64,000 nt of DNA from Schmidtea nova (GCA_044892505.1 CM097883.1:286006001-286070000), one strand, 5' to 3'. Numbered from the stretch's first letter, positions 15,105 to 40,131 are shown. The notes: generated by a model from the letters alone, not told the origin. Numbers and translations are program-made.

Positions 15105-15653
15105 ACTATGATGAAATTCGTAAAGCATACATGATCTTCATTCTGCATTTTTCCTGTCATTTCTACAGATTTAATGCATATTCATCAAATTACTGAAAAA
15201 ATATTTAAACATTAAACTTACTTCATAAAATGGAAAAAAAACAAATAGTTTTCATATATTTAAACAATTTATTAGTTGATTGAATATGTATTATTGTTGG
15301 ATCCACCATTTGGTCCACATTTAGCATAAAAAATAATAATTATAAGAAATAAAATAAGAATAAATTAAAATAAATATAATTATGAAAATATCAGTAAAAA
15401 CGAATTAAAATGTAATAAAGAATATTAATTTTCTATCAAAATTTAGAAGAAAGTAAATAGAAAATGTAAAAGTGTTAAAGAAACAATGATATTTAATTAT
15501 ATTTAAGGAAAAATAAAGAAATAATAAAGAAAAAGAATTACAAAAAATATTAAAAATCAAAATAGCAAATCGCTAGCAATTGACAACAAAATCAATTGAT
15601 TTTAGCGTAATAAAAGTTATTAATTGTGCTGATCTGATGCTCAGCTTCACGCT

Positions 15654-15688
15654 GATTGGTCCAAGCTTTGATCTGATCAGTATATATA
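15654..15688 (+). promoter_or_regulatory. Putative LTR promoter (inverted CCAAT + TATA)
   Basis: GATTGGTCC...GATCAGTATATATA, conserved in the divergent solo LTR; also present at +22012 in the 3' LTR. Confidence 0.55.
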
Positions 15689-15913
15689 CTGATACAGATC
15701 CAGATAATTTTAATGTTTTTTATATGCTTTTTAGTTATTGAGAATATTCAAATTTGAGATCATTCTTAAAACCAAAGGTATGGATTATTGATTGTTTTTA
15801 TTTGTGTAATTTTATTGTGAAGTTCTGACATTGCCATTATGTTTATCCAATTAATAAAATGTTTTTCGAATATGATTTATTTTTTTTTGTGGTTGAATAT
15901 AGAATTAAATCAA

Positions 15914-16202
15914 GCTTCTTCCACTGTGCAATCAGTGGTAGGAGACGACTTTATATATCTATTATATATCTTTTATTGAGCTTCTTCCATCGTGTAATCG
16001 GTGGAAGGAGGCAACATTATGTTGTGATATTAACAATTAGGTTGAAGTATATTTTTATAAACAATTTTTGGGTCGAGCTTCTTCCACTGTGAAATCAGTG
16101 GAAGGAGGCGAATATATATATTATCTATATACCGTATTTATAGTAGAAAATTACGTACGATTTAAGGGGCTCCGATCACCGTGCAATCGGTGAAATGGAG
16201 GC
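15914..16202 (+). other. Four tandem stem-loops with TG(C/T/A)AAT hexaloop
   Basis: Hairpins at 15914-15946, 15980-16012, 16078-16110, 16168-16202; inner stems ACTG/CAGT, ATCG/CGGT, ACTG/CAGT, ACCG/CGGT. Confidence 0.7.
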
Positions 16203-16668
16203 ATACTGTGCCGAGTAGAAACGACTGCTCCGTACAGTTAGGCCGTCCGACCGGTGTAAAGCGCCGTGACGAGGGTAGGAATTCTTATTTAACAATGATT
16301 TTTAACCCTATTTTTCACTGGATAGTATAACCAGTTGAAGTTTTATTTTATAATCGATTTAAATTTTTTGAGTTTATAGTTAAGTTGAGTTTTGATTTTA
16401 GTTGGATACAGATGTAACTGCGATTTGAGTAATCTGATTTTACCTTGAGATTCACAGAGTGTTAGCGTATATTTTTCGATTGTCACATCTGGGGTTTGTG
16501 GGCATAGAGCGGCAGATACACGGTTAAGAATTTGTACAAAATATAATTTTAATAACAACATAAAAATCGATAACTCTAATAACGTAGTGATCTACTACGC
16601 AAGTAACATAGCAGCAATAGGCTATAGGTTCAAACATTCCACATAAATAATTAAACATAATTGCTTAT

Positions 16669-16806
16669 CCTGAACCCTGTACATAGGGCAGTGGATCTTA
16701 GTTTATTTTAATAATTTTCTTATCCTGATTGCTGTATATAGCACAGGCGTAACTAAATAAAATGCATTATGAAATAAATGTATCTGATCGCTGTACATAG
16801 CGACAG
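16669..16806 (+). other. Three bulged stem-loops with GTA(C/T)AT loop
   Basis: CTG-AA-CCCT-GTACAT-AGGG-CAG; CCTG-AT-TGCT-GTATAT-AGCA-CAGG; CTG-A-TCGCT-GTACAT-AGCGA-CAG; counterparts at 10398-10551. Confidence 0.7.
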
Positions 16807-16934
16807 TGTTGAAAGTGTAATAGGTAAATCATTTTCTCTTCCTGAATTCGCAATTAATGATTGTCGAAAGTATGAGAATCGTTCAAAGCAAGACTGCCAA
16901 TTTCATGTTAATAAACCATTTTGAATTTTAGAAA

Positions 16935-17525
16935 ATGTCAGCCAACACAGCAACTAATCAAGCCGAATTAGATAAAGCATGGAGGATAATTCGCAGCCTC
17001 GAAAAGGAAATGCTGCGAAAATCGGAAAAAATAAAAGAAGCCGATGGCATAATCTCCAACCTAAAGAAAAGCTGGTTCAATCCAGAACAAATGAAAATAC
17101 AAATTACAAAAACTCAACGCTCTCAGCGAGCTAACAGCGAATTACAAATGGAATTAGACGCGACGAAGATGGAATTAAAGAAATGCCTAAAATCCGTAAC
17201 GGCATCGTATTTAACTCAAGAGCTCAGCCAGCTCATTCGACCAATCATTTATCAGCATTGGGCTGACGAGAAAGCAGGATGCACAAAAGGAACGAACACC
17301 GAGGAACCCTCTCAGGTTCAAGCAACAACAGCAGCCAGTACACCAAAGAACCCGATAAATCCAGAAGTCAAGAAGAAAAAGAAGAGCAAGATGGGCGCAC
17401 GTCAGCGTCGCTGGAAGAAACAAGTTCTTCAGCAATTGGCTCAACAATCCAAAGAAATTCCAGAAATTGATTTGACCATGAATTTTGCAATATCGGATGA
17501 AGACATTACCAAATACTTTGAATAG
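16935..17525 (+). CDS. LTR-encoded coiled-coil protein with Arg/Lys-rich motif (196 aa)
   Basis: Intact in both LTRs, homologous ORF in the solo LTR; basic motif KKKKKSKMGARQRRWKK; preceded by TTTTAG|AAA ATG. Confidence 0.8.
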   Translation: MSANTATNQAELDKAWRIIRSLEKEMLRKSEKIKEADGIISNLKKSWFNPEQMKIQITKTQRSQRANSELQMELDATKMELKKCLKSVTASYLTQELSQLIRPIIYQHWADEKAGCTKGTNTEEPSQVQATTAASTPKNPINPEVKKKKKSKMGARQRRWKKQVLQQLAQQSKEIPEIDLTMNFAISDEDITKYFE

Positions 17526-18124
17526 AACTTCTGTGATTTAGTATTTTCGCTTATTAAATAATTTTTGTTTGTATTTATTTTATGGTAAAGTATAGAAAAT
17601 AGAGTGATTTATTAAAAAATTTAAAATAATTTAAAGGAAAATATAGAATAAATTAACTATACATTAGAATTAACAATAAGATTAACATAAATCTAATAAA
17701 CAATAGAAGCATTTAAGAGATAATAAATTGTAATTGATGAAGGATTATTTGTTGATATTGTAAAGAAGGGGGCTGAAAGAAAAGTAGAGAGTTGAAATAT
17801 ATTGTAGAGAAAGGGGGCTAAAGAGACATTGAAATGAAAGATAATGGATGCGGATAGATTAAAGTTAAAGCGTAAGTCCTTCTATCGGCAGCGAGACGAA
17901 CCCGTGAACATAAATGGGGAGTAGTTTTAGCAATAGAGCTCACCTGCCCATCATTGTTCAGACACCTTGCACTTTTCCAACTCGATTATTACAGGGAAAT
18001 GATCGAGGGTGCTCGTGTGATATGTAAGCATTTTATGTGAGGTTTTGGATGGAGGAATCCCTAGAGCGTTTTGTTTAATTTACTATTTTTGTTTTAACCC
18101 AATCCGAAACCAACAACATAAATT

Positions 18125-18142
18125 TGGGGGCTCAGCCGGGAT
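18125..18142 (+). promoter_or_regulatory. Primer-binding site, tRNA-Pro type
   Basis: TGGGGGCTCAGCCGGGAT 6 nt after the LTR end; resembles the canonical tRNA-Pro PBS TGGGGGCTCGTCCGGGAT. Confidence 0.85.
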
Positions 18143-18514: not shown

Positions 18515-18976
18515 ATGAACGACAAATTAAAGGAAACAGAGGAATTCCTAAACACGGAAAACAAAACATACGATGAATTATGCGAGAAAATAAGTCGAAT
18601 AAGAGAATCCGGATTCAAAGAACCCATGACACAAACTGAAGAGACAACAGAGCTGATAAAAATAATGGAAAGAGTAGACAAAATAGATATAACTACTAGA
18701 TATAAATGGTACCGAACGAGATTAGAAAATGCTGATGTAAACATAAAATGCAGACAGTTAGAGCAACAATTAACTCCAACATACAACAAGTGGACAATAC
18801 AAGGAACTGAGACAGCTAAGAAATTTAAACTGTGTTACATATGTCGAGAAAGGGAGAATAAAATCATGTTTTTACCTTGTGGACATTTTCGGTTTTGTGG
18901 AATCTGTGCAGCCAACTGCGACAAATGCCCGATGTGCAATCTCGAAATAGACGAAAGAATTACTGTGTATTTATAA
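18515..18976 (+). CDS. Coiled-coil + IAP-type C3HC4 RING protein (no BIR)
   Basis: C-terminal CYIC...FLPCGH..CGICA...CPMC...ITVYL matches IAP/MDM2-type RING ends. Confidence 0.85.
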   Translation: MNDKLKETEEFLNTENKTYDELCEKISRIRESGFKEPMTQTEETTELIKIMERVDKIDITTRYKWYRTRLENADVNIKCRQLEQQLTPTYNKWTIQGTETAKKFKLCYICRERENKIMFLPCGHFRFCGICAANCDKCPMCNLEIDERITVYL

Positions 18977-19019
18977 TAAATAAATGATGAATTTAGTAAT
19001 ATTATTTGTAATAAGTAAA

Positions 19020-19150
19020 ATATGAGAATTCATTGTTCATAATGAGAATTAATATGAGAATTCATAATGAGAATTAATATGAGATGAGAATTAATATGAG
19101 AATTCATAATGAGAATTAATATGAGAATTGACAACGAGAATTTATAATGA
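19020..19150 (+). repeat. Short ATGAGAATT-based tandem repeat
   Basis: About ten degenerate copies of ATGAGAATT at ~12 bp spacing. Confidence 0.8.
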
Positions 19151-19613
19151 AAATTGATAATGGCAATGACAGAAATCATAATAACAATTGATATTTATAA
19201 ATAATTTTTGAGCTGCTCACGAGTAGTCCGTTAAGCACCCATTGGGAGGAACCAACTGATCAACTTACCCGAGATGTATAGAAAGGGGCCCATCGCGGAA
19301 ATTGGAAAGCTTTTGTGATGTGACTGATCACCACATCTTGCATTAGTAGACCAATGCGATCTTTTTGTATGTTTTGGTTGGGGTGAAAGGTAGGGACAAT
19401 CTAATGAGGTTTAAGTGCATGCAGAAAATACAAATAAAAATGAGAGAATAGAACACTGATCAGTGGAAGTCGAAAGAACATTAAGTAAATAAGTAGAATG
19501 AAAGTTAATGTGATAACTCTCATAAAAATAGAGATAATTCAGCTGAATGATAACTAGCGAAGTGGATAATTGCGGTTAACCGGTTAAAGAGATTAGTTAA
19601 ATACCTTGTATAA

Positions 19614-20338
19614 AAGGGTCAAGGGCAAATAAGCCATATTAGTTACTCTGAAAGAAGGGTCAAGGGCAAATAAGCCATATTAGTTACTCTGAAAGAAGGG
19701 TCAAGGGCAAATAAGCCATATTAGTTACTCTGAAAGAAGGGTCAAGGGCAAATAAGCCATATTAGTTACTCTGAAAGAAGGGTCAAGGGCAAATAAGCCA
19801 TATTAGTTACTCTGAAAGAAGGGTCAAGGGCAAATAAGCCATATTAGTTACTCTGAAAGAAGGGTCAAGGGCAAATAAGCCATATTAGTTACTCTGAAAG
19901 AAGGGTCAAGGGCAAATAAGCCATATTAGTTACTCTGAAAGAAGGGTCAAGGGCAAATAAGCCATATTAGTTACTCTGAAAGAAGGGTCAAGGGCAAACA
20001 AGCCATATTAGTTACTCTGAAAGAAGGGTCAAGGGCAAATAAGCCATATTAGTTACTCTGAAAGAAGGGTCAAGGGCAAATAAGCCATATTAGTTACTCT
20101 GAAAGAAGGGTCAAGGGCAAATAAGCCATATTAGTTACCCTGAAAGAAGGGTCAAGGGGCAACGAGCCGTATTAGTTAATTACTCTGAAAGAAGGGTCAA
20201 GGGCCAACGAGCCGTATTAGTTAATTACTCTGAAAGAAGGGTCAAGGGCCAACGAGCCGTATTAGTTAATTACTCTGAAAGAAGGGTCAAGGGCCAACGA
20301 GCCATATTAGTTAGTTACTCTGAAAGAAGGGTCAATGG
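19614..20338 (+). repeat. Tandem array A: 13 x 41 bp then 4 x 45 bp units
   Basis: Unit AAGGGTCAAGGGCAAATAAGCCATATTAGTTACTCTGAAAG; period counted from AAGGGC positions 19621...20154, then 45 bp variants. Confidence 0.95.
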
Positions 20339-20339
20339 C

Positions 20340-20590
20340 AACATAAGAATTTGAACCTATGATTGCAATAGCGATAGCAACACAAGGAATGTGAACCTGT
20401 GATTGCGATTGTGGATAGCAACACAAGGAATGTGAACCTGTGATTGCGATTATGGATAGCAACATAAGGAATGTGAACCTATGATTGCGATAGTTGATAG
20501 CAACGTAAGGAATATGAACCTATGGTTGCATTGTGAATAACAACGAAAGGAATATGAACCTAAAATTGTAGTCGTCAACGACGTAGGAAT
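20340..20590 (+). repeat. Tandem array B: six degenerate 40-41 bp units
   Basis: Unit like AACACAAGGAATGTGAACCTGTGATTGCGATTGTGGATAGC; GAACCT at 20353, 20393, 20434, 20475, 20516, 20556. Confidence 0.85.
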
Positions 20591-21226
20591 AGTGAGCATT
20601 AGAGTTTGAGTAATAAAAGTAAAGATGATTAAGTAAACTAGAGATTCAGTATGCATACGAGTAGAAATAGGAATAAGAGAAATTAGAGTTGACCGGAAAA
20701 ACCGGTAGAAATAGTGAGAATAATGAATAATGATGAGAAATTAGAGATGACTGGAAAATTTGATAGGAATAGTGAGAATAGTGAGTAATGATGATATAAT
20801 GAATAGTGATAAAATGATAATTGAGTCAGGAGAACTCAAGGGAATTAAAGCGTTTGAGCGACAAATTAAATTGGGAGACTGAGGGAAAAGTAACGAATTT
20901 ATTGGATAACGATAGATAATTATTACGACCATATAGATAATTGTTACCAGTGAATAGATAATTTAAATAGACTTAAATAAAGGGGAAACCGGGAATGGGG
21001 AAACAATGGAAACCCAATAATGAGGAATAAAAGCGCAACGATAACAATGATGTATCGTTGAAGTGACTTTTTAATTTAGATATACGGAACAGAACAAGTC
21101 AAAACAACCAACCAATCAATCAGAATACGATAACAGAGAAACAGAAAAATTGATAAATTAAAGAAAAGTAAACCGAGATCAAGAGCAGTTAAAAATCAAG
21201 AAGTTAATAATTCACAAAGAAATAAA

Positions 21227-24200
21227 TTGAGATCAAGAGCAGTTAGTGCTACAATCGAAAAAGTTGATAATTCACAGAGAAATAAATCGAAACAAAGAGC
21301 AACCAGTGCTACAAAGAAAACAAATCCTAAAGGAAGCAAATCAAGAAGAGTAATAGTAGAAAAGTCAAAAATCGAAAACAGTAAATTAACAAAAACTAAC
21401 GAAAGTGAAACAGAAGAAAGTGCAAGTGAAACCTACGATAATTATAATAATACGGAAGCATCAGATAACGAGTCAATAAACACAGAAGAAGTAGAAGCAG
21501 AAATTGATAATAATTCAAACGAAACGAATAACGAGCATACTAGTGAAACAAGAGGAAACGAGAGTAAAACGACACAAGACAGCGGAATCGAAATAAACGA
21601 ACATAAAGAGGAAATTAAAGATAAATTTACTGGAGAACCATTCAATGGAGATGCCAGCAAGTTAGAAACGTTTTTAAAAGAATTTGGTATATTTGTAGAA
21701 GTGTGTAAATGGAAACCAGAAACGATAAGGAGCAGAATTCAGTTATATTTAAAAGACAGTGCGTTAGACTTATATTTAGAAGCTAAAAATTCGGATGATC
21801 AACTCGATAGTTGGGAAAAGATAAAGAATTTTTTCCAGCAAACGTTTGGAATAAATAAAGTATTAAATGAAGCATTTACAGAATTTTCAATGAGGAAGCA
21901 GAAAGTTAATGAATCAAATGCAGTATATGCAAGTGAATTAAAGAAATTGGCTAAATTAGCATTTAATCAAAATAGTCCAATGAGTCCAGAATTAATGGCA
22001 GCAATTTTTGTGGGGGGATTGAGAAGACCCTATATAAGAGCACAAGTTGGATGCCAAGGTTGTAAAACAATAGATGAAGCGTTGGAAATCGCCAACAGAT
22101 TTGAATTACATATGATCGGAAGTGAAGGAAGAATTTACCTAGCAATGGATACGACACAAAACGAACAAGCAATAAAGATAAATAACCATATTCCGAATTC
22201 ACAGCAATTAAACCGACCACCACCTCAAAGGAGAAATGAGGGAAACAAAATACAAAATTACAGAAACCAAAATAATTATAGTACGCAAGGACAAACAAAG
22301 CAATGTCAAACCTGTGGAAAGTTAGGACATTGGCAACAAGAATGTTTCGCGAATTTAAATTGTAAAAAGTGTGGAAGAAAAGGACATTCGGAAAGTAGAT
22401 GTTACCTGAATTCATGTTATAACTGTGGACAACCAGGTCATATGGCAAAGAATTGCCAACAACAAAACAACCAGCAAAGGAATTGGTCGAACAACGGAAA
22501 TCGACAAAATTATACGAATCAACAGAGTAACGGAAACCGTCAGAATTTTGAAAATCAACAGAGTAATTATAACCAGAATAAAAGTACCACCAAGGAAATA
22601 CATTTATTACAAGAAGTTCAGAGATTGACAGAGTTAATAAATAATACACCGAGAGGAAATCAACAAACGAATCAACAACAAATGAATATGATGAGAAAAG
22701 TGGAAAGTGAAAATGAACGACTAAATCGAGAAAGTCAAGCACGACATGCTCAAGAATGGGCAAGAATACAAAGAGAAGACGAACAGAAACGACAAGAAAG
22801 AGAACGACAACCATTGAGAATTAATATGATGAGAGCAACGAATCAAACAAGAGATAACAAAGAAGATATCGAACCAGAAACAAACCAGATAAACCCAAAT
22901 CCGGAAGATGAAGAAAACCAAAAAGAAATAGTACAAGAAAACGAAGAAGTTATTGAACAAAAAATGATGTTGGTAGTCATGCCAAACGATCATGTATTTC
23001 GATTTGAATATGATGAAAAAGAGGAAGTAGGAGTATTAATTAATAAAGTAAACAAGACGATTCCGGGAATGACGAAACTACCCCGAGAAGCATTTTTACA
23101 GACAGAAGACGAAGCAGCAATAAAATTGAAACCAACCGACATATGGAAAGATTTAGGAGTACCAATGAATAAAATGAAAGTCACAGTTATCCAAGAAATA
23201 GAAGAAAATAACGATGAAGAGAAATCAAAACCAGTAACAAAAGTCAAAAGTAGAGCATTGAAGATATTTGAAGAGAAAATCAAACAGAGAAAAGCGATGG
23301 AGATAGAGAAACGAAGAGGCCAAATAGAAGAACCAAAAAATAATGACAAAAAAGAAGAGATACCACCAAAAAATGTACCAGATAAAGTAGAACAGACAGC
23401 ACATATAAACATGTTAAGAAACTTAACTAGAGAATTTTCAGATGTAGAAAGTGACAGTGATGTCAGTAGTTTAGCAGGAGATATGCTAAAAGAACCAGAA
23501 AATGAAGACAACAAGATAGAAGTAGCGAAGACGCCAGAAAATATACAAATTAAAGAAGATGAAATTCAGAAACTATTAGATAATGCGTTAGAAGTGATTT
23601 ATAACGAAGAATTTATTGATAAGAAGCGATATCGAAAATTTATAAGAGCAGTATTCCGAATGAACTATAAAGAACGATTACAAAGTCGTGAAATAGAGAT
23701 ATTATCAGGATACGTCGTCAAACTATTAGATGAACCACTCCATGAATACATAATTTTAATAGAAATAAACGAATGTTCACCAAGAATTTGGATCAAATCT
23801 CCATGCACGAACGAAATTTATCGATGGGTAGAAGACAGATTAGGAAGTTCGTATAAAAACAAATTTATATATTCAGGAAATGAACTTGTAAGACGAGCAA
23901 CGCATTTGGTAGAAACAGGCATATGGCCAGGAGAGATAACAACATTATCAATATGCGACAATAAGAAAGAGGAGAATTTACAAGAAATCGCAAAGGAAGC
24001 AAATATGTGTTTTGAGATGAGAATTAAACCTCAGTTAGTAGAAAGGAAAGAAAGAATTCTCAGAGAAAATTTAAATTCACTAATAGAACAAATTATTCAA
24101 CAAATCGACAAGAATAGAGAAGAATTAACGAAAACTGAATATGAGAAATTAAAACAATGCATCGAAAATATACGAGATACCAGCCATACGAGACATTCGT

Positions 24201-27200
24201 CATACAAGACTTGGAAAGTGATCGCAAAAATGGGAAAAGCGATGTTTAAACGAGGAGAAATAGGAGATTTAAAAATCAAAGTGAAATTACCAAACGAAGA
24301 CACAAAAGAAATTGAAGTAATCGCGGATTGCACAATAGAAGAATTAGTTGATGTTATCAATGAGACTTTATTACAACGGGAAAAAGAAGACGAATTAGAA
24401 GACGATATCATCATAAAATATAATGAACACGTACTAGGAGATCATGATGAGAGACGATTATATAAAATCGGTATATGGGATAATCACCAAACAATTCACG
24501 TTATCAGAATGGATGATACGTCAAGAGAAACACCAAAAGACGAAAAAAGGAGACAAGAACGTCGAAGAGAAGCGATGCACAAACTAAGACAAATAATAGA
24601 AATTTATCGAAGATGGCAGATACAGCCAGAATGGGAAAATGTATTAGGAGAATTAAACTTCAACGAACGCCGATTAACACCAGTAGAGAAACACTGGGAT
24701 GTTAAAGAGAAATGCTGGAAAGCAAAAGGAGGTATATATGAAGAGGAATTTAGACCAGAAATGGAAGATAGATATGAACCAGAAATCAGAAGAATTTGTA
24801 TGGTAACAAGAAAAGTCATGCCAACAGATTTGGATGGACCAGAAACCGCAGCAATATGGTTAGAAACGCAAAGACGAAAAGCTGACGAACTTATTGAATT
24901 ACTAAAAGGAAATGTACAAGGAAAAAGGCGAACGATCAAAGGATTAGCCGAATTCTTTGTAGCAGGCGGCGAAGATATAATCAGTTTAAGAAAAGTAGCA
25001 AAGGCAGTAACAGAATATAAACGAGTTAACGAGTGGTGCCCAGAACAATTAGACAATATAATCAAGAAATGGAGAAACCAAGAAAACGCCCAAGAACCAC
25101 CGCAGAAAATACATTTAAGGATAATATATCCAGATCGAGAAAAAGAAGAGCTTTGGGTAAGATTAACTGAAAAGATTCGAGATGTTAAAAAGAGATTAAA
25201 ATATGAACCACCATTTCATCTACAACATCAAGGACGATCACTAGAAAACGATATGGAAATTTTGATAACGCCAGCACAGTTAGAACTGGCAAATACGTTA
25301 ACAGTAGACGCAATAGCAGGTCAACCATTAAAACTTAAAGAGAAAAGAATAAAAGAAAGTGGAGATACTCAGAATCTAAGGAAGACGATGCAGATAAAAC
25401 CAGGAACAAGCGCAAGGCAGTACGAAACAACATCAATTAAAATCCAAGAAAGAACTCGACCACAACCATACGATACAGAAGAAATATTAACAGACAGCGA
25501 TGATATGCTAGAAGAATTAACCAATTTGACAAAAGAAAAAGGCAATAATATTTTCGAAAGAGTACAAGAGTTACCCACAACGTCACAAGCAATCAATACC
25601 CAAGATGAAGTTGAGCAAGAAATAGAAATAGAAGAAGTGAACGAAATCTCTGAAGAAGAAGCAAGAGGAGCAAATACAGAAAACGAACGATTTACACAAG
25701 AAATGGAAAAATGGTGGGAACAGAGAAATAATGAACCAAGAGATGTTACAGAAGAAACTGGACGAGAAACCAGATTAATTGAAACAGGTACAACAATGGA
25801 TAGACGACCTAGGCGTAGACCAAAGACAGATCCAACCAACATAATCAACAAAACAAAAGAAGAAAGGAGACAAGAGAAATGGGAAGTATGTTTAAAGAAA
25901 CTCAACAAAATAGCAGAAGCGAAAGACCAAGAAATAACGCAAAAATGTCAAGGCGAAGGATGGATATCAAAAACACTAATGGAAATATTGGCGATAATTG
26001 ATCCAGAATTGAAAAAATGGTGGAGAATAAACGAAATAAGCGACAAGGCTAAAGCATTACATAGCGCAATCGCACCAATCTTACCCGAACTGATAAAAGA
26101 GAAGACAAAATCAAGCCATTTAGATTGGCAAGGGACCACAACGTTGATAAAGAGGTTAACTGAAGATGCAGAAAATGATAATAAATATGTGATAGCAATT
26201 GCGTATACAATTTATAACTTATTAACATTGAGTAGAGGTAATCCAAAATCCACAGCAATAGAGAAGCACATCAAAAATACAGCAAATATCATAGCAAAAG
26301 AAATAGAACCATACGTCATCAGTAAAGGAGGATGGGAAACATTTGCTAAAACGAATCAAAGAAACAGTCAAGCAAAGAATATGAAAAAGAAATTTGAAGA
26401 AATTTTAGGAGAATTAGAAAAAGAAAAGTCAGGAACAGGAAGTGGAAAATCTTCACTAAACCTGAATTCAATCATAATGATGATATTAATATGGCTAATT
26501 AGCGTTGAAGGAGCAACGGCGTTCGAAGTATTTGATTGCGACCAGGTGGCATTAGGAGAAAAATATTCATTAAGAGGAACCGAACAATGCAAAGATGCAA
26601 CTCCAACAGAATTAAAAGTATTACATAGTAAACAAATATATCACGTATATCAGGAAGCCGACTTAATAAAGACAACAGTTAATGAATGTAAAATATATAA
26701 AACAAGATTTGCTTTTTATTGTGGACATCGCCACTACTCTGCAATCGTAATGCCAGGAACGGAAAGGGAAGCGATAATGTTACAAGGAGAAGATTGCAAT
26801 AAATTGTTCAAACATGGAGAAGTCGAAACAAGAGATCGAATAAAGATAAGAGGAAAAGCTGGAGTAATACTACAACAAACTTATTATGTAGCAGGAGCTA
26901 TCACAGGAGGAGAAGGTTACTGTCAAGGAGCAACATATCCAATATTTGGAGTACCAGCAACTAACATGGTAGTGATCGACACATATACGGTAGAATTAAA
27001 AGCGTATGAAGCATATTTTGACCCAGCAACAGGAGAAATGAAGACGTTATCAATGTGCAAAATTGAAGCCAGTACTTGTCAAACCGGTATGTCAACTTTA
27101 ACATACATAGCAAAAGCAAATGAATGCCAATTACAATTATTAAAGGAAGCAGAGTTCGACGAGGTACAAGGAAAAATCTTTCAGGAAGAAGAGGATGATG

Positions 27201-30798: not shown

Positions 30799-30824
30799 CA
30801 GAAACTGTAAAAGGACCAAGCGTA

Positions 30825-31400
30825 TTGACAATGATGCAAAACATCAAATTGACAGAAGAAGTATTAAACTGGAAAATACCAAATACAAATAAACCAGCAT
30901 TTAAAGTTAACAAGTTTATGGAGAAAAATCGAAATTGGTGTATCCAAAGCGCACTAATAACTTATATATGGCCCGAAATTGTAGAAATTTTCATGAGAAG
31001 AGAAGACCTGAGATTTACAAACAAGCCTAAAGAAACGGAAAAGGTAGTCAAATGGAAAGAACTGATGAGAACACACCTCCAAAGTTGGATAAAAGCCAAG
31101 AAAGAAATTATACAGTATCAGTTAGACAAGAAAAAGATACCCGAAGATATAGAATACCAAGAATTCGAAGCAAGTAATTTAACATCACTATATTATGCAA
31201 AACTAATAGAAACAAGTAATGTCGAGGACGACATTTTTAACGAGCTAGGGAGAGATAATAATACTGACAAAGACGATGATGATAATAATGAAAACAATGA
31301 CGACGAGAGAAATAAAGACGATGATGAACAATCTAAAACAATCATGAAAAGAAAGGAACAAGTTACAGAAGGAATCCATTATTCAGACCAGAAGTATTAA
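30825..31400 (+). CDS. Probable polyprotein part 3 (ankyrin-like start, acidic tail)
   Basis: Frame open from 30768, overlapping the end of part 2 in the -1 frame; ETVKGPSVLTMM echoes the preceding repeat KTVKDNSILDVT; D/N-rich tail; its stop overlaps the next ATG (TAATG). Confidence 0.7.
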   Translation: MTMMQNIKLTEEVLNWKIPNTNKPAFKVNKFMEKNRNWCIQSALITYIWPEIVEIFMRREDLRFTNKPKETEKVVKWKELMRTHLQSWIKAKKEIIQYQLDKKKIPEDIEYQEFEASNLTSLYYAKLIETSNVEDDIFNELGRDNNTDKDDDDNNENNDDERNKDDDEQSKTIMKRKEQVTEGIHYSDQKY

Positions 31401-33364
31401 TGTTCGCAATAATCATAACGCTTATGGGACAATGTGAAGCAACGAAACAAGAGATATCAGTAGAAATGGAAGTACCAATACAAAAAGCATCAACACAAAT
31501 AATGAATTCAAAAGATATTGAACAAGTATGTTGGGTAAAAGAGAATGAAATTCTCGGAGATAACAACCTATTACGATGTATAATACCAAACCCCGAGCGA
31601 AAAACTATAATAATCGACGAAATGGATATGGAAACATGGTATAGAATATGTGTAATCAGAAAACCCAAAGACGCAGAATCACACAAAACAGTCACATGCC
31701 AAGTATACAAGACACCCAAAGTTCGATACGAGTTCGCCAATGGAATAGACCTTCCAGGACCATTTTATTTTAAAATAACAAGAGAACCAGCATCAAGAAA
31801 AGTCTTACAACAACCAAGAACCAAGATAAGAACACCAAGTATAAGGAATACAACGGATAAACCAGAAGCAAACAGAAGAAATACAACGGATAAACCAGAA
31901 CCAAAAAGACGAACGAAACAAACCACAAGAGTAATCTATAATTCCAAGTTGTTATGTATAGCACTTATTATGACAATACTGAAGCGATTGGAAGAAGGAA
32001 TAGAAATGGATACAATGACATTAATAGACATGGAAGAGACACGAATGACAAATCAAAAATGTTGGTTTAGAAACGATGAAAAATTAGAATTAAAGGAATC
32101 AAGAGAAATTCAGAAATTGGAAGCGAGTAAAACGAACAAAGTAATCAAGATAATAAAGATAAAAACAGACAGAATTCATAAACTATGTTTATTGGAAAAA
32201 GAGAGAAACAAGAAAGGAATAACCAATTGTAAAACATTCCAAGCAAGGAAAATAATAACGTTTGCAAGAAAAATGGGGAAAAGAAACAAACAGAATTTCC
32301 AGAAATTAACCATAACGTTAGAAATAACGGGAATAGAACAAAACGTAAACGGAGTATGCTGGAGAAAATACGAGAAAGAAACGAATAAACATAAATCATC
32401 ACAATGTCAAACAATCAGAGGAACAACCGCAGTACAAATAAAAAGCTTAGAAAGAAATCAAACGTACGAAATATGCCTAGTAAAGGAAAATGATCAAATA
32501 ACGAGAGAAGATTTAGAATGCAGAATATACAAAGCACCGAACAGAGTAAAAACCATTAAAGCAATACGAAAGAATAAAAGTCAACAAAAACCGAAGCATA
32601 ACACTACCGAAAGTCAAACAGAACCAGAGAGGAAAACCTCAGCAACACTTATACTGTGGAAATTGGATGACAAAACAGTGGAAATATGTTGGACAATGAT
32701 CAAGAAATACGAAGAAAGACAACCACAACAATGCGAAAAGATGAATAAAGAAGAGGGGATCAGAATTCAGAACCTACAATTGGACAAACAATACGAAATA
32801 TGCGCAATAGAGAAAGCAGACAAATTTGGAAACCAGCAAGAAAAATGTGGAAACTATTATACACCGACAAATACTATGATCAAAGGAAAAATCAAGAAAC
32901 TAACCTTCGGAGAATTGAATCAAACAACGAAACAAATAGAAAACGAGGAAGTAATAATAAATTCTTATGCCAAATGGAAACCAGAAAAAGTAATTCATGA
33001 AGTCAAAAGGAAACAACAAGAACGACAACAATTGGAACTCAAATTAAAAGGACAATATGGACCAATGATCAACCAAAGCAAATTCACCCAAATTAATATT
33101 AACAAGCAAAGAAGAGAACTAATTGGAGTAGGAATACTGGCAGTATGCGTACCAGTAATAATAATACTATCAATAATATGGCTATGGGACATAATAAAAA
33201 AGAAACCAACCAGACAATGGCCAGATATAAAGATTATGAATTGTAAAATCAAGATACCAGAAGAAGTGAAAAAAGAATTCCAAAGAAGAACCAAAGGCAA
33301 AGAATTTTGGAAGCAAATAGAAGACGAGGAGCGACACGATGAAAAAGCAGTGATGATAGTATAG
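31400..33364 (+). CDS. Type I membrane protein with four FN3-like Cys modules (654 aa)
   Basis: N-terminal hydrophobic leader, four repeats of CW...C...I..L....Y.IC....C, TM LIGVGILAVCVPVIIILSIIWLW, short cytoplasmic tail. Confidence 0.75.
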   Translation: MFAIIITLMGQCEATKQEISVEMEVPIQKASTQIMNSKDIEQVCWVKENEILGDNNLLRCIIPNPERKTIIIDEMDMETWYRICVIRKPKDAESHKTVTCQVYKTPKVRYEFANGIDLPGPFYFKITREPASRKVLQQPRTKIRTPSIRNTTDKPEANRRNTTDKPEPKRRTKQTTRVIYNSKLLCIALIMTILKRLEEGIEMDTMTLIDMEETRMTNQKCWFRNDEKLELKESREIQKLEASKTNKVIKIIKIKTDRIHKLCLLEKERNKKGITNCKTFQARKIITFARKMGKRNKQNFQKLTITLEITGIEQNVNGVCWRKYEKETNKHKSSQCQTIRGTTAVQIKSLERNQTYEICLVKENDQITREDLECRIYKAPNRVKTIKAIRKNKSQQKPKHNTTESQTEPERKTSATLILWKLDDKTVEICWTMIKKYEERQPQQCEKMNKEEGIRIQNLQLDKQYEICAIEKADKFGNQQEKCGNYYTPTNTMIKGKIKKLTFGELNQTTKQIENEEVIINSYAKWKPEKVIHEVKRKQQERQQLELKLKGQYGPMINQSKFTQININKQRRELIGVGILAVCVPVIIILSIIWLWDIIKKKPTRQWPDIKIMNCKIKIPEEVKKEFQRRTKGKEFWKQIEDEERHDEKAVMIV

Positions 33365-33739: not shown

Positions 33740-33913
33740 ATCAGAAGGTCAATGGCTAGATTGGGTAATAAATGGATTAGAGAATGGTATAGAACCAGAT
33801 TCAACGAGCGAACCATAGTCAAATTGTAGCGGAAAATTGTAGATATGTAAAAATAAAACTCTAGAAAAATCAAAACAAAGAACAAATCAATGTATGTATA
33901 TATTATTGTAGAA

Positions 33914-35269
33914 ATGGATAAAGAGGAACGAGCAGTCGAGATTTTGAGAGCAGCCAACAGAAATTGGAACAAGAGATTTGTATGTGGATATTGTAATAAT
34001 TTATTACGGAAACCAAAGCAAACCGCCTGTGGATGTAGATTATGCACTAGATGTGTACAAATGTTAGAGTTAAAAAGAATAACAGAATGTCCAGAATGTA
34101 AAGAAGGACAAATAGTATTAGACGAAACGAGACCAGATAGAGCAACTCAGAGAGAAATCATGAGCATATTAATTGAATGTATAAATCCACCGTGCATATG
34201 GCAAGGACAAATCAGCGAAATTGAAAATCATATAGAAAATTGTGAAGAAAAGAGAAGCGAATGTGAAAAGTGTAAAGAAACGATAATTTTAAAAGACAAA
34301 GAGAAACACAGAGATGAATGCAAAGAGGAAGAAATCGCATGTGAATATTGCGAAATTCGAGAAACAAGGAGAAAAATTGAAGAGGAGCACATCAATATAA
34401 AAGAAGAGAAAATATGCGAACAGTATGTAGGAGTGTGCCCAAACAAATGTGAAATTACCGAAGAAGTGAAATTACGAGAACATTGGGAAAAGTGTACAGA
34501 AATACCAAGAGAATGTCCTTACAACAGATATGGATGCAAGGAAAAGAAGTTTCAACAAAATATGAAACAACATTTAGAAACAGAAGCAATCAATCATATT
34601 GAAATGACAAACAGAACAATTCAGAAATTGGAAAAAGAAGTGGAATCTCATAAAATAATGATGAACCTATTATTAGAAACGAGAGAACAGTTTGAATTAA
34701 CCCGAGGAAGGATGGAAAAGAAAATAATAGCCATCAAGGAATTAGCAAAAGGAATGAAAGTGCAATATAACAAGTTAATACAAGAAATTGATGAGAAAAA
34801 AGATTTACCAATAGCACCGTATGTGTGGAAATTAACGGATTTCCGAAATAAATTGGAAGATGCACGAAGCTTCAAGAAAACTGCGGTACTAAGCCCACCA
34901 TTTTACTTATGGAAAAACGGGGCTAAAGTGAGATTGAAAGTATATCCAAACGGAGATGGGAAAAGTATGGGAAAACACCTATCAATATTTTTTGCGTTTT
35001 GCAAAGGAGAATATGACGATTTAATCGATTGGCCGATAGGAGTAGGAGTAATGATAAAAATCAGGGGTTTAAACGAAACCATAGAAAAGAGATTCACGAC
35101 AGAAAAAGGAGCAGTTACGAGTAACAGACCAACAGAAGAATGTGGATTAGCAAGTGGAGAACCACACTTTGTATTACAAAGCAAGATATGGGGATTATTG
35201 TATGAGGACACCTTATACATAGAAATGGAAAGGAATGAGAAGGCAGATAGAAAAGGATGGTTGGCGTAG
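33914..35269 (+). CDS. TRAF: Full-length TRAF-family protein (RING, TRAF zinc fingers, coiled coil, MATH)
   Basis: CGYC..LL..PKQTACGCRLC..C...CPEC; several CxxC..H..C fingers; YVWKLTDF...SPPFY...LKVYPNGDG..MGKHLSIFF..KGEYDDLIDWP. Likely start ATG 33914 after TTGTAG. Confidence 0.92.
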   Translation: MDKEERAVEILRAANRNWNKRFVCGYCNNLLRKPKQTACGCRLCTRCVQMLELKRITECPECKEGQIVLDETRPDRATQREIMSILIECINPPCIWQGQISEIENHIENCEEKRSECEKCKETIILKDKEKHRDECKEEEIACEYCEIRETRRKIEEEHINIKEEKICEQYVGVCPNKCEITEEVKLREHWEKCTEIPRECPYNRYGCKEKKFQQNMKQHLETEAINHIEMTNRTIQKLEKEVESHKIMMNLLLETREQFELTRGRMEKKIIAIKELAKGMKVQYNKLIQEIDEKKDLPIAPYVWKLTDFRNKLEDARSFKKTAVLSPPFYLWKNGAKVRLKVYPNGDGKSMGKHLSIFFAFCKGEYDDLIDWPIGVGVMIKIRGLNETIEKRFTTEKGAVTSNRPTEECGLASGEPHFVLQSKIWGLLYEDTLYIEMERNEKADRKGWLA

Positions 35270-35374
35270 CAAGAGAAAATGATCGTGTAAATAAACTGTA
35301 CAAAACAATATAAAATGATAAATAAACAAAAATAATAAAAGTAGTCTGATTGAAAATATTTGTAATTATAGAAA

Positions 35375-36478
35375 ATGGGAAACGTCGAAATCAGTTTACA
35401 AGAAGTTACCGCACATCAAGATGAAGTTATTTGTGAGCATTTAGAACAAATTGAAAGTTGGATCCACGCATATTACCACAAACAAAAAGAAGTAGAAAGA
35501 CAAGCCGAACAAATAACAGAAGCCAAAAGATTAAAGCGATTAAGTCAAGATAAAATAGACGAATTATATGAATTATTAGAGAAACAAAAAGAATATTATA
35601 AAAAGATGATGAAAGAACGACGAGAAGAAAGAGAACGAGAACGAACAGAAATGGAACGGAAAATGTACTCCATTACCGAGCAAGCAAGATATTGGAAAAA
35701 AGAAGCGAAAGAATCTTATACGAAAGCAAGAGAAATAATTGAAAGAACGGCGTACAGCGATGATTGGAAATTATTTGAAGAAATCGATAAATTAAAAGAG
35801 GAATTAGAACAGAAAACCTATCAGGAAATATCGAGCAAAAAATGGAATAAAAAGAGACAACAATTCATCAGAGAGCAAGCAGGAAAAATTAAACAACTTA
35901 TGCACCAGATTGAAAGGTCGGAAAGAGAATTATATTTCAGTAAACAACAATCAGATGCAAACCTCAGAGCAGGGATGCAGAAAGAGGAAGATATGAAGCG
36001 CGATATTAATGGTTATCAAGGAGTAATCACTCAAAAGAAGATAGAATTAAAGAAAACTAAAGAAAGATTAGAAGAAGCAAAACAAAGCTATGAAGAAAAT
36101 TTATTAAAATTAGAGGAAGCAAAACAAAGCTATGAGGAAAATTTATTAAATTTAACCAAAGAAAATGAAGAGTTGAAACAAAAACTGATACAAAAATTAA
36201 CACCACCAAAAGAGACAGATATCACCAAAGCAGTAATAAAAATGATGGAAGAGGAAGAGAAAAACAATAAAATAACAGAATTAGAAAAACAGATCGAAGC
36301 ATTAACAGAACAATCAAATTATTTAGAATACCTGTTAGACGAAGAAATTCAATTGTCACACTTCTATCGAGATGAAGTAACAATGTGGAGAAACACGATA
36401 GTATGGTTACCACTCCCTACGAATCAAGTGGAACCTCAAGATGAAGGTTTTCACGAACCCAATGAGTCGTTAGTTTAA
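35375..36478 (+). CDS. Long coiled-coil protein (367 aa)
   Basis: E/K/Q-rich heptads, internal duplication LEEAKQSYEENLL x2; TTATAG|AAA ATG. Confidence 0.8.
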   Translation: MGNVEISLQEVTAHQDEVICEHLEQIESWIHAYYHKQKEVERQAEQITEAKRLKRLSQDKIDELYELLEKQKEYYKKMMKERREERERERTEMERKMYSITEQARYWKKEAKESYTKAREIIERTAYSDDWKLFEEIDKLKEELEQKTYQEISSKKWNKKRQQFIREQAGKIKQLMHQIERSERELYFSKQQSDANLRAGMQKEEDMKRDINGYQGVITQKKIELKKTKERLEEAKQSYEENLLKLEEAKQSYEENLLNLTKENEELKQKLIQKLTPPKETDITKAVIKMMEEEEKNNKITELEKQIEALTEQSNYLEYLLDEEIQLSHFYRDEVTMWRNTIVWLPLPTNQVEPQDEGFHEPNESLV

Positions 36479-36552
36479 AGAGAAGCGAAAATTCTTTGTA
36501 AATATCTGTAACATAACAATGTCAAACTGTATTGACAAATTTGTAAAGTGAA

Positions 36553-37116
36553 ATGAAGAAGCTCGCAATACTGATAATCCTAAATGTAATCGAAATCACC
36601 CAACAAAGAGAAGACCGTCCGATATCAAAAGAAAATCTACAAGTCTTACCCGAGAAAATCTATAAAGAAATAGATGATCTATTAAAAGAAGCAACTAAAG
36701 AAATTTCTCAAATTCAATTGTCAACAGCACCTAAACCAGTATCAACGCAACAAACCCTGTGCAAAATCAATAACAAATTAGAGAAGATTCGAAAAACCTT
36801 AAAAGAAAGTAAAGAAACTATAAAGAATTTACATCGAGCAGAAATTCAATACCAAGAGAGATGGATCGTTGCGATTATAATCGTATTAACAATTAGTACA
36901 ACAACCTGCGCAATTACCATTCTCATCGCAGTATACAGAATAAAAGTTCTTAAACAAAAACAATCAATCATCAATCAAACAACAGCATATGATGACAATG
37001 CCCGAAGACAAATGAGAAATCAGTTCAACAGAATACGAACCCAATACGAGTTACCAGCAATTCCACAGAACCAGTCCAATCCAGTGCGAGTTATGAACTA
37101 TTTGTATAAACCATAA
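36553..37116 (+). CDS. Small type I membrane protein (187 aa)
   Basis: Leader MKKLAILIILNVI, helical ectodomain, TM WIVAIIIVLTISTTTCAITILIAVY. Confidence 0.7.
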   Translation: MKKLAILIILNVIEITQQREDRPISKENLQVLPEKIYKEIDDLLKEATKEISQIQLSTAPKPVSTQQTLCKINNKLEKIRKTLKESKETIKNLHRAEIQYQERWIVAIIIVLTISTTTCAITILIAVYRIKVLKQKQSIINQTTAYDDNARRQMRNQFNRIRTQYELPAIPQNQSNPVRVMNYLYKP

Positions 37117-37306
37117 AGACGTGACAAAATATTTGATTAACAATTTTCTGAATTTTCTATATTTTCTTCGTGATTACGTATAGACTAAACTCACTTTATG
37201 TGAATCTTTATGCTTATGTATCAAACGTAGAAATTTTTATGAATGTTGAATACAAGTAATATTGTATAATTAATTGCGGGACGCAATTTTAGGGGTCCCC
37301 GAGTGA

Positions 37307-40131
37307 TGTTGGATCCACCATTTGGTCCACATTTAGCATAAAAAATAATAATTATAAGAAATAAAATAAGAATAAATTAAAATAAATATAATTATGAAAA
37401 TATCAGTAAAAACGAATTAAAATGTAATAAAGAATATTAATTTTCTATCAAAATTTAGAAGAAAGTAAATAGAAAATGTAAAAGTGTTAAAGAAACAATG
37501 ATATTTAATTATATTTAAGGAAAAATAAAGAAATAATAAAGAAAAAGAATTACAAAAAATATTAAAAATCAAAATAGCAAATCGCTAGCAATTGACAACA
37601 AAATCAATTGATTTTAGCGTAATAAAAGTTATTAATTGTGCTGATCTGATGCTCAGCTTCACGCTGATTGGTCCAAGCTTTGATCTGATCAGTATATATA
37701 CTGATACAGATCCAGATAATTTTAATGTTTTTTATATGCTTTTTAGTTATTGAGAATATTCAAATTTGAGATCATTCTTAAAACCAAAGGTATGGATTAT
37801 TGATTGTTTTTATTTGTGTAATTTTATTGTGAAGTTCTGACATTGCCATTATGTTTATCCAATTAATAAAATGTTTTTCGAATATGATTTATTTTTTTTT
37901 GTGGTTGAATATAGAATTAAATCAAGCTTCTTCCACTGTGCAATCAGTGGTAGGAGACGACTTTATATATCTATTATATATCTTTTATTGAGCTTCTTCC
38001 ATCGTGTAATCGGTGGAAGGAGGCAACATTATGTTGTGATATTAACAATTAGGTTGAAGTATATTTTTATAAACAATTTTTGGGTCGAGCTTCTTCCACT
38101 GTGAAATCAGTGGAAGGAGGCGAATATATATATTATCTATATACCGTATTTATAGTAGAAAATTACGTACGATTTAAGGGGCTCCGATCACCGTGCAATC
38201 GGTGAAATGGAGGCATACTGTGCCGAGTAGAAACGACTGCTCCGTACAGTTAGGCCGTCCGACCGGTGTAAAGCGCCGTGACGAGGGTAGGAATTCTTAT
38301 TTAACAATGATTTTTAACCCTATTTTTCACTGGATAGTATAACCAGTTGAAGTTTTATTTTATAATCGATTTAAATTTTTTGAGTTTATAGTTAAGTTGA
38401 GTTTTGATTTTAGTTGGATACAGATGTAACTGCGATTTGAGTAATCTGATTTTACCTTGAGATTCACAGAGTGTTAGCGTATATTTTTCGATTGTCACAT
38501 CTGGGGTTTGTGGGCATAGAGCGGCAGATACACGGTTAAGAATTTGTACAAAATATAATTTTAATAACAACATAAAAATCGATAACTCTAATAACGTAGT
38601 GATCTACTACGCAAGTAACATAGCAGCAATAGGCTATAGGTTCAAACATTCCACATAAATAATTAAACATAATTGCTTATCCTGAACCCTGTACATAGGG
38701 CAGTGGATCTTAGTTTATTTTAATAATTTTCTTATCCTGATTGCTGTATATAGCACAGGCGTAACTAAATAAAATGCATTATGAAATAAATGTATCTGAT
38801 CGCTGTACATAGCGACAGTGTTGAAAGTGTAATAGGTAAATCATTTTCTCTTCCTGAATTCGCAATTAATGATTGTCGAAAGTATGAGAATCGTTCAAAG
38901 CAAGACTGCCAATTTCATGTTAATAAACCATTTTGAATTTTAGAAAATGTCAGCCAACACAGCAACTAATCAAGCCGAATTAGATAAAGCATGGAGGATA
39001 ATTCGCAGCCTCGAAAAGGAAATGCTGCGAAAATCGGAAAAAATAAAAGAAGCCGATGGCATAATCTCCAACCTAAAGAAAAGCTGGTTCAGTCCAGAAC
39101 AAATGAAAATACAAATTACAAAAACTCAACGCTCTCAGCGAGCTAACAGCGAATTACAAATGGAATTAGACGCGACGAAGATGGAATTAAAGAAATGCCT
39201 AAAATCCGTAACGGCATCGTATTTAACTCAAGAGCTCAGCCAGCTCATTCGACCAATCACTTATCAGCATTGGGCTGACGAGAAAGCAGGATGCACAAAA
39301 GGAACGAACACCGAGGAACCCTCTCAGGTTCAAGCAACAACAGCAGCCAGTACACCAAAGAACCCGATAAATCCAGAAGTCAAGAAGAAAAAGAAGAGCA
39401 AGATGGGCGCACGTCAGCGTCGCTGGAAGAAACAAGTTCTTCAGCAATTGGCTCAACAATCCAAAGAAATTCCAGAAATTGATTTGACCATGAATTTTGC
39501 AATATCGGATGAAGACATTACCAAATACTTTGAATAGAACTTCTGTGATTTAGTATTTTCGCTTATTAAATAATTTTTGTTTGTATTTATTTTATGGTAA
39601 AGTATAGAAAATAGAGTGATTTATTAAAAAATTTAAAATAATTTAAAGGAAAATATAGAATAAATTAACTATACATTAGAATTAACAATAAGATTAACAT
39701 AAATCTAATAAACAATAGAAGCATTTAAGAGATAATAAATTGTAATTGATGAAGGATTATTTGTTGATATTGTAAAGAAGGGGGCTGAAAGAAAAGTAGA
39801 GAGTTGAAATATATTGTAGAGAAAGGGGGGCTAAAGAGACATTGAAATGAAAGATAATGGATGCGGATAGATTAAAGTTAAAGCGTAAGTCCTTCTATCG
39901 GCAGCGAGACGAACCCGTGAACATAAATGGGGAGTAGTTTTAGCAATAGAGCTCACCTGCCCATCATTGTTCAGACACCTTGCACTTTTCCAACTCGATT
40001 ATTACAGGGAAATGATCGAGGGTGCTCGTGTGATATGTAAGCATTTTATGTGAGGTTTTGGATGGAGGAATCCCTAGAGCGTTTTGTTTAATTTACTATT
40101 GTTGTTTTAACCCAATCCGAAACCAACAACA
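37307..40131 (+). repeat. 3' LTR (2825 bp)
   Basis: Copy of 15295-18118, followed by TTAT. Confidence 0.95.
38947..39537 (+). CDS. Second copy of the LTR-encoded basic protein
   Basis: Differs from 16935-17525 by N>S and I>T. Confidence 0.8.
   Translation: MSANTATNQAELDKAWRIIRSLEKEMLRKSEKIKEADGIISNLKKSWFSPEQMKIQITKTQRSQRANSELQMELDATKMELKKCLKSVTASYLTQELSQLIRPITYQHWADEKAGCTKGTNTEEPSQVQATTAASTPKNPINPEVKKKKKSKMGARQRRWKKQVLQQLAQQSKEIPEIDLTMNFAISDEDITKYFE

Follow-up and report, generated by a model that had tools for sequence, protein, structure and literature searches.

A pol-less, probably Burro-type retroelement of Schmidtea nova and the in-frame deletion forms of its subfamily

The element and its long reading frame

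The window analysed here is a stretch of 64,000 nucleotides from the planarian Schmidtea nova (GCA_044892505.1 CM097883.1:286006001-286070000). Positions 15295 to 40131 hold a genuine 24.8-kb retroelement bounded by long terminal repeats (LTRs), which is very probably a recently inserted Ty3/gypsy element of the Burro type, made pol-less by an in-frame deletion found across its family and likely copied by enzymes that its sister copies supply. The two LTRs show 4 differences, TTAT is duplicated at both ends, and a primer-binding site matching tRNA-Pro at 18 of 18 positions begins six bases past the 5' LTR (Table 1). These observations bear out the boundaries proposed in a first-pass annotation, which was made from the sequence alone.

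A Pfam scan of the window copy, comprising its nine open reading frames (ORFs), identifies zinc knuckles, a Monjiviricetes-type fusion glycoprotein spread over two frames, a retroviral protease, ankyrin repeats, a C3HC4 RING, and a TRAF zinc finger plus MATH, in agreement with the earlier calls of Gag, a glycoprotein and a protease. No reverse transcriptase (RT), RNase H or integrase was detected by Pfam in these nine ORFs. A search with Gag yielded 79 copies at 93% or above (the window copy included) and 40 copies of a second subfamily at 79-80%. In 15 of the 79 close copies, Gag, ubiquitin-like (Ubl) segments, a Bcl-2-like domain, Env, the protease, the ankyrin region and the larger membrane protein form one frame of 4,108-4,140 codons. 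In the window copy this frame is interrupted by private frameshifts near 27.5, 30.8 and 31.3 kb, and the Met that precedes the capsid in 69 of 69 sister copies is absent. With a lost start and three frameshifts, only separate ORFs could still be expressed from the window copy, which is defective and unable to copy itself. Among sequencing runs, four contained matching sequence, none of them recorded as RNA; contigs of unspecified kind from two of these, both from one study, spanned all 30 bins, which bears on neither expression nor splicing. Because the comparison of copies reveals frame-keeping deletions of one long frame, most of the accessory ORFs listed in the first-pass annotation are domains of a single polyprotein of about 4,100 codons; its RING and TRAF ORFs are indeed separate.

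Table 1. Features of the element, in window coordinates
Feature	Position	Strand	Basis or remark
Target-site duplication, left (TTAT)	15291..15294	.	4 bp
5' LTR, 2,824 bp, TGTTGG...CA	15295..18118	+	LTR-pair comparison
Four related hairpins within LTR	15912..16205	+	loops contain GCAA/GTAA/GAAA/GCAA
Three LTR hairpins bearing TGTANATA	16660..16815	+	motif at 16678, 16733, 16792
196-aa ORF within LTR, no family	16935..17525	+	3'-LTR copy at 38947-39537
Primer-binding site, tRNA-Pro(TGG)	18125..18142	+	18/18 vs host tRNA gene 3' end + CCA
153-aa ORF, XIAP/cIAP-type RING, no BIR	18515..18976	+	Pfam zf-C3HC4_3 E 1e-11; XIAP RING E 7e-10
Tandem-repeat leader, 25/42-, 41- and 58-bp units	19036..20794	+	repeat analysis
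Polyprotein, first piece: Gag, Ubl-like segments, Bcl-2-like domain, Env signal peptide and N-half	21134..27565	+	start codon lost
Gag capsid region and CCHC zinc knuckles	21632..22470	+	Pfam zf-CCHC E 3e-10; Retrotrans_gag in family-3 homolog
Three candidate Ubl segments	22955-23200, 24260-24520, 25097-25330	+	weak profile support for middle one only
Bcl-2-like domain	25862..26410	+	BH2 GGW present, BH1 NWGR absent
Envelope glycoprotein, Monjiviricetes/gB-type	26450..28356	+	Pfam PF24664 E 2e-22 and 8e-40
Aspartic protease	28861..29133	+	Pfam RVP E 3e-7
Junction of in-frame ~3.0-kb RT/RNase H/integrase deletion	29207..29219	+	comparison with pol+ sisters
Ankyrin-repeat region, two clusters	29479..30745	+	Pfam; no specific IkB match
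Polyprotein linker piece, isolated by frameshifts in window copy	30768..31400	+	homologs in subfamily 2 and family 3
C-terminal type-I membrane protein: signal-like segment, four FN3-like repeats, anchor near 33110	31400..33364	+	hydrophobicity, alignment, fold
Cys-containing fibronectin-III-like repeats	31469-31720, 32003-32248, 32300-32542, 32630-32869	+	repeat alignment
Intronless full-length TRAF ORF: RING, zinc fingers, coiled coil, MATH	33890..35269	+	Pfam and structure-database matches
367-aa Glu/Lys-rich ORF, likely coiled coil	35375..36478	+	no Pfam match
187-aa single-pass membrane protein, no family	36553..37116	+	hydrophobic segment; 51% identity in subfamily 2
Conserved 21-nt motif preceding 3' LTR, polypurine-tract position	37286..37306	+	identical in subfamily 1 and 2 copies
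3' LTR, 2,825 bp	37307..40131	+	LTR-pair comparison
Target-site duplication, right (TTAT)	40132..40135	.	4 bp

Four in-frame forms in one recombining pool

A deletion of ~3.0 kb takes out RT, RNase H and integrase, and pol-bearing (pol+) sisters carry all three exactly at its junction. A segment of ~170 aa that lies between the protease and RT in one pol+ sister, at the place of the dUTPase-like segment of Burro, has no Pfam match and is also deleted from the window copy. A second deletion of ~5.4 kb, from ~23.4 to 28.8 kb, accounts for the loss of Bcl-2, Env and all but one of the three Ubl-like segments. Both deletions preserve the frame and both occurred at short direct repeats; these repeats remain at the junctions, and splicing was thus rejected as the origin of the two deletions. 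The subfamily consists of four in-frame forms (complete, pol-less, env-less, and lacking both), with open frames that cluster at 4,108-4,140 codons (15 copies), 3,329-3,343 (7), 2,284-2,345 (6) and 5,115-5,147 (2). The window copy has the pol-less junction in a shorter variant, also in frame, that is found in 5 env+ copies (the window copy included) and 1 env-less copy. In the copies checked, RING, TRAF, ankyrin and the membrane protein with fibronectin type III (FN3) repeats are retained by all forms, and Ubl, Bcl-2 and Env are lost as a set.

A census of 69 of the 78 sisters gave 34 env+/pol-, 10 env-/pol-, 7 env-/pol+ and 4 complete copies, with 14 unresolved. Since this sample was drawn by similarity to the window Gag, exact junction patterns were also counted genome-wide; the resulting counts are lower bounds, which miss the window junction variant and some env-less variants, and comprise at least 49 pol-less versus at least 20 pol-intact and at least 17 env-less versus at least 56 env-intact junctions. 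When crossed, the junctions fall into 36 env+/pol-less, 11 without both, 9 complete and 9 env-less/pol+, with 4 unplaced. Enrichment of pol in env-less copies is weak (p 0.069 genome-wide; Fisher p 0.012 in the sampled loci). In a search with pol DNA, 17 of 40 matches are at least 92% identical before the second subfamily begins. LTR pairs are 99.5-100% identical in nine of nine copies (one of them partial), which represent all four forms, and all nine have 4-bp duplications, indicating that the four forms moved recently. The LTRs of sister copies are only ~87-90% identical to those of the window copy.

The forms exchange sequence. Among 35 env+/pol- copies, all four gametes are found for 29% of site pairs less than 50 bp apart and for 44-52% of more distant pairs. 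Near-fixed differences between forms are absent, between-form distances equal within-form distances, and in trees of gag, ankyrin and env the form labels are scattered at random, so that the idea of four separate lineages was rejected. The ratio of nonsynonymous to synonymous change (dN/dS) is 0.03-0.21 for shared variants and 0.16-0.47 for singletons, and is similarly low in the other forms; when variants also seen in the sampled pol+ copies are removed, shared variants of the pol-less copies give 0.06-0.27. Env is the most constrained of the regions with many shared sites (dN/dS 0.08-0.10). Of the 35 pol-less copies, 19 are broken within a 10-kb stretch that is open in the other 16. All 25 frameshifts are private and none is shared, compared with 192 shared among 473 synonymous variants (p 6e-6), and the sole shared indel keeps the frame. 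Together, the lack of shared frameshifts and the low dN/dS of the remaining shared variants favour the idea that pol-less sources require an intact frame.

Related families in the same genome have similar organizations. Copies of the second subfamily (loci L027-L034) contain many frames of 5,140 codons, 3.2-kb LTRs that are 99.9-100% identical within a copy, and two ORFs within the LTR. They agree with the first subfamily in the order of accessory genes, the primer site and the pre-LTR motif, and their RT is 98% identical. A third family (loci L123-L126) has a frame of ~4,993 codons with an in-frame MATH, the same tRNA-Pro primer site, and LTRs of ~7 kb or more that apparently include the 3' end of the polyprotein; its RT is 91% identical to that of the window's subfamily and in the same clade, and its layout is that published for S. 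mediterranea. These homologies by themselves suggest a planarian of dugesiid type as the likely host. A fourth family (loci L129-L136), with a Gag-Bcl2-Env-Pol frame of ~3,060-3,080 codons, 1.1-kb LTRs and a different primer site, accounts for most of the 141 Pfam Bcl-2 matches in the genome.

Domains, cargo and non-coding parts

Within the polyprotein, the domains named in the first-pass annotation vary in how well they are matched. No Ubl match reaches the threshold (Pfam E 0.005-0.05, for a single one of the three segments; best PDB E 0.025), so that these segments are candidates. The Bcl-2-like domain is weak as a single sequence, with a best E of 0.32, and all 37 of its PDB matches are Bcl-xL; a profile built on six copies, drawn from four families in the genome, finds Bcl-xL at E 1.5e-6, and the corresponding domain of the smallest family matches Pfam Bcl-2 directly. 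A homolog search with the Ubl/Bcl-2 region of subfamily 2 gave no match. The hydrophobic stretch that follows the Bcl-2-like domain doubles as the signal peptide of Env (near 26450), whose membrane anchor lies near 28190 and whose frame breaks near 27.5 kb. The ankyrin repeats stand, but the IkB label is unsupported, as IkB is absent among the best 60 of 171 PDB matches. At window positions 21134-21590, ~150 codons upstream of the Gag start Met are open in subfamilies 1 and 2, and ~100 in family 3. This stretch is acidic and rich in Ser, Glu and Asn; it may be a translated extension or reflect composition bias only.

The polyprotein ends in a 654-aa ORF with four FN3-like repeats, in which two cysteines are invariant across three families. 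One repeat, folded from a 12-row alignment, gave a model with a confidence score (pLDDT) of 88.5. Fibronectin type III domains were its best matches both in Foldseek, with TM scores mostly of ~0.6-0.7 and no E below 0.001, and in VIA, where a Z of 8.5 (root-mean-square deviation 2.7 over 75 residues) is barely over that tool's stated background. The family-3 homolog matches Pfam fn3 at E 1.4e-5. A single-sequence fold of the whole ectodomain was uninformative (pLDDT 37.5), a homolog search with the protein gave no match, three-sequence profiles against PDB returned nothing useful, and Atlas searches with this protein and the 187-aa protein gave only leads below 0.9. The signal-like segment was read by eye and is below the script's cut-off. 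This protein and the 187-aa protein both contain hydrophobic segments, as expected for the two membrane proteins proposed earlier.

The remaining cargo lies in separate ORFs. The RING of the first ORF is closest to XIAP/cIAP, in keeping with an IAP-type RING, but no BIR was found in the nine window ORFs, the subfamily-2 RING ORF or three family-3 polyprotein pieces; the BIR search did not extend to the remaining ORFs of family 3 or to the genome as a whole. The TRAF call proved correct over the full length of the gene, with a MATH domain closest to TRAF3/2/5 and a RING and zinc fingers closest to TRAF5/6. Its DNA has at least 40 matches at 98-100% in the genome, and a homolog search with the protein gave a single TRAF, at 25% identity. 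The 367-aa ORF is 97-100% identical in sisters and 65% in subfamily 2, and possibly corresponds to the 'Smc' motif of published Burro. The RING, TRAF, coiled-coil and 187-aa ORFs are 95-100% identical in all sister copies examined, and their order is kept in the second subfamily. The possibility that the cargo is private to one copy, which by the terms of the first-pass annotation would have refuted a coherent system, was therefore rejected.

The LTR itself contains a 196-aa ORF that is 92-98% identical among sister copies and 46% identical over 85 aa to that of subfamily 2, as well as two groups of hairpins; the motif TGTANATA in one group is presumably a Pumilio-type element. The end of the 3' LTR reads CCAACA in some copies and CCAACAACA in others (window 18110-18124 and 40122-40131, and sisters), and the distance from the LTR end to the primer site is 6-9 bases among copies, hinting at variable end processing. 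Host tRNA-Pro(TGG) genes form a tandem array with a 308-bp period from G000:C1:459,609,706 onward (loci L099-L102), and ARAGORN called 4 of 5 genes in locus L099 as tRNA-Pro. The tRNA 3' end has 1,106 exact matches genome-wide and belongs to the primer tRNA of Burro-type families in this genome. Elsewhere in the window, a related family has probably left a solo LTR at ~9250-12400, which matches parts of the element LTR at 67-79% identity and carries ORFs at 10584-11150 and 11309-11917, the second of which resembles the 196-aa ORF. Broken ORFs at 50278-52157 may derive from a piggyBac-type transposase. Fragments at 40526-41005 and 42839-43270 may represent a Tc1/mariner-type DNA-binding region, with a 159-bp duplication, and the end of a GIY-YIG-like endonuclease.

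Relation to known elements and a model for propagation

Published Burro elements contain RING, Smc, MATH_TRAF, BIR, ankyrin, BCL2 and Ubl modules, and a mononegavirus-like Env in one frame between BCL2 and protease (Arkhipova and Yushenova 2019, PMC6431247; for this and the other papers cited, statements apply to the portions available). A Dugesia element in the same paper has a 5,140-aa ORF1 and a separate MATH ORF, and proviral status as well as meddling with apoptosis and ubiquitination have been proposed for Burro (PMC6431247). The family described here shares with Burro1-4 and GYPSM1, giant Ty3/gypsy elements of dugesiid planarians, the Gag-BCL2-Env-PR-(RT-RH-IN)-ankyrin frame, with candidate segments at the place of Ubl before BCL2, RING and TRAF cargo and tandem repeats; MATH/TRAF, RING and ankyrin are all present, and Env is likewise in frame between the BCL2-like domain and the protease. 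The D. tigrina layout, a ~5,100-codon frame with MATH moved to a separate ORF, also occurs in this subfamily. The Gag-to-Pol polyprotein of Burro, ~4,900-5,100 codons, compares with 5,115 and 5,147 codons in complete sisters, and the gypsy order of RT, RNase H and integrase is seen in sister copies; the window copy, unlike Burro, lacks all three enzymes and is deleted and frameshifted. Here a full-length TRAF gene follows the polyprotein, whereas the paper places it in an upstream ORF in D. tigrina and as an in-frame MATH in S. mediterranea (PMC6431247). Burro has a BIR, which was not found in the sequences searched here. At 24.8 kb without pol and ~28 kb with it, and with an LTR of 2.8 kb, these elements are at the small end relative to the published >30 kb. 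Thus, the Burro lead in the first-pass annotation was right and the cargo travels with the family, but the novelty of that cargo largely falls away, as section 7 of PMC6431247 already lists most of it; that section makes no mention of the FN3 membrane protein, the LTR ORF or the four deletion forms.

Other systems offer further comparisons. Flatworm GAG-ENV-POL elements with an HSV (herpes simplex virus)/gB-type Env, Smed_errantivirus_1-6 (Chary and Hayashi 2026, PMC13524379), have, as here, a gB/chuvirus-type Env between Gag and Pol and many near-identical copies. That paper catalogues intact three-gene elements, unlike the present deletion forms, and the word 'Burro' does not appear in its main text as available. 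Burro1 is under PIWI control (PMC8532177), and Burro is merely mentioned in PMC11410931. Lee et al. (Dev Cell 2026), as cited in PMC13465017, found that a Burro1 BIR+RING protein (B-IAP) protects stem cells; B-IAP has a demonstrated anti-caspase role, whereas the present ORF has a RING and no BIR. In bovine ERVK[2-1-LTR] C/D, MusD/ETn, IAP I-delta-1 and KoRV/RecKoRV, defective elements are more numerous than competent ones, by which they are mobilised in trans and with which they recombine, as judged by four gametes (PMC10924933). The bovine D type lacks functional genes (PMC10924933), whereas here two reciprocal deletions keep the long frame and frameshifts are unshared. The literature covered holds no report of pol-less or env-less Burro forms, nor of an FN3 domain in Burro, at which no search was aimed; Grohme 2018, Lee 2026 and the GYPSM1 Repbase entry are outside this scope, and deletion forms or the FN3 region may be covered there. 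The family and its cargo are already known. Apparently new, in that they were not found in the literature covered, are the four-form recombining pool with its kept frame, the FN3 membrane protein, and a recurring likely protease site.

In retroviruses and Ty3 elements, genomes without enzymes are copied in trans within shared particles and recombine by template switching. In the same way, the pol-less RNA would be copied by enzymes from pol-bearing sisters and co-packaged in the same particles, and the second subfamily could also serve as a helper, given its identical primer site and pre-LTR motif and its 98% identical RT. The long frame would be read as a single polyprotein that crosses the endoplasmic reticulum membrane at two signal/anchor pairs (Env and FN3); cleavage by signal peptidase of the host would set Env and the FN3 protein free. 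The element protease may cut at [IM]-[NC]-M-[LMV]-[RT] to yield the Gag, Ubl, Bcl-2-like and ankyrin parts; this motif occurs 4 and 3 times at domain edges in the two subfamilies against a shuffle mean of ~0.015, and persists as HINMLR in a 30%-identical homolog. The RING, TRAF, coiled-coil and 187-aa proteins would be made from separate ORFs. Pol-less sources would have to translate an intact polyprotein, most simply if Gag (perhaps Env) prefers its own RNA for packaging. In cells where the element is transcribed, the Bcl-2, RING and TRAF parts may dampen both TRAF signalling and cell death. There is precedent for defective and competent endogenous retroviruses (ERVs) being packaged together and recombining (PMC10924933).

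Several points weigh against this interpretation. Low dN/dS belongs to the whole pool; the subtraction of ancestral variation rested on 11 pol+ copies (4 for env); singletons are also constrained (dN/dS 0.16-0.48), so that the 'private' variants are in part inherited; assembly errors may account for some private frameshifts; and the recombination could be gene conversion at the DNA level. The processing motif was defined after inspection, which makes the shuffle test not blind, and the protease sites and membrane topology are predicted from motifs only. BH3 binding by a Bcl-2-like domain without BH1 NWGR is uncertain. Finally, membership in Burro is proposed from architecture and from the homolog P0001, the one representative that a homolog search returned.

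A possible, if somewhat improbable, alternative is ordinary parasitism, in which pol-less and env-less forms are defective passengers whose frames are intact owing to youth and to purified sequence supplied by recombination. This would accord with forms that are not clades, with the half to four-fifths of polymorphisms held in common with pol+ copies, with the 19 pol-less copies already broken, and with the excess of defective over competent ERVs in cattle (PMC10924933). However, recombination alone does not purge frameshifts from a source, and of the 25 frameshifts none is shared, whereas sharing is seen for 192 of 473 synonymous variants; moreover, the only shared indel is in frame, and the bovine D type has no functional genes (PMC10924933).

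It is rather unlikely that the family is an infectious retrovirus-like lineage whose cargo is an NF-kB/apoptosis immune-evasion kit like that of large DNA viruses. The conserved fusion-type Env, the TRAF3/2/5-like protein, the XIAP-type RING, the Bcl-xL-like domain, and an FN3 ectodomain with a modelled receptor-like fold fit that description, but neither IkB (among the 60 best ankyrin matches) nor BIR was found, the window copy has no enzymes and a broken Env, and the sole functional study, according to PMC13465017, sees the Burro1 IAP as stem-cell protection within a host-transposon mutualism.

Still less probable is a bipartite cooperative system, in which env+/pol-less copies give Gag, Bcl-2 and Env, env-less/pol+ copies give enzymes, and the two jointly set a Gag:Env:Pol ratio beyond the reach of a single frame and spread between cells: the reciprocal in-frame deletions at module edges, the enrichment of pol in env-less copies of the sampled loci (Fisher p 0.012) and the constraint on Env agree with it, but across the genome the association is only weak (p 0.069), 9 of the 65 placed junctions still belong to complete copies, the second subfamily with its 5,140-codon frames could supply enzymes, and env-less forms transpose without their own Env. 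It is equally doubtful that the family is splitting into a two-component virus-like system, in which pol-less copies make capsid, the Bcl-2-like protein and Env, env-less copies make enzymes, and both, co-packaged and recombining, keep a receptor-like surface protein with four FN3 repeats as a second glycoprotein, which could act in attachment or as a decoy.

Planarian gene-family counts can be inflated by the intronless TRAF and Bcl-2 genes that many element copies carry. Since Ubl, Bcl-2 and Env are lost jointly, Bcl-2 is tied to the envelope stage. The gB-type fusogen, whose entry mechanism is called unknown in PMC13524379, has a candidate partner in the FN3 membrane protein. Finally, ~80 young copies in four recombining forms are a natural population test bed for asking which modules a Burro element has to provide and which can be borrowed.

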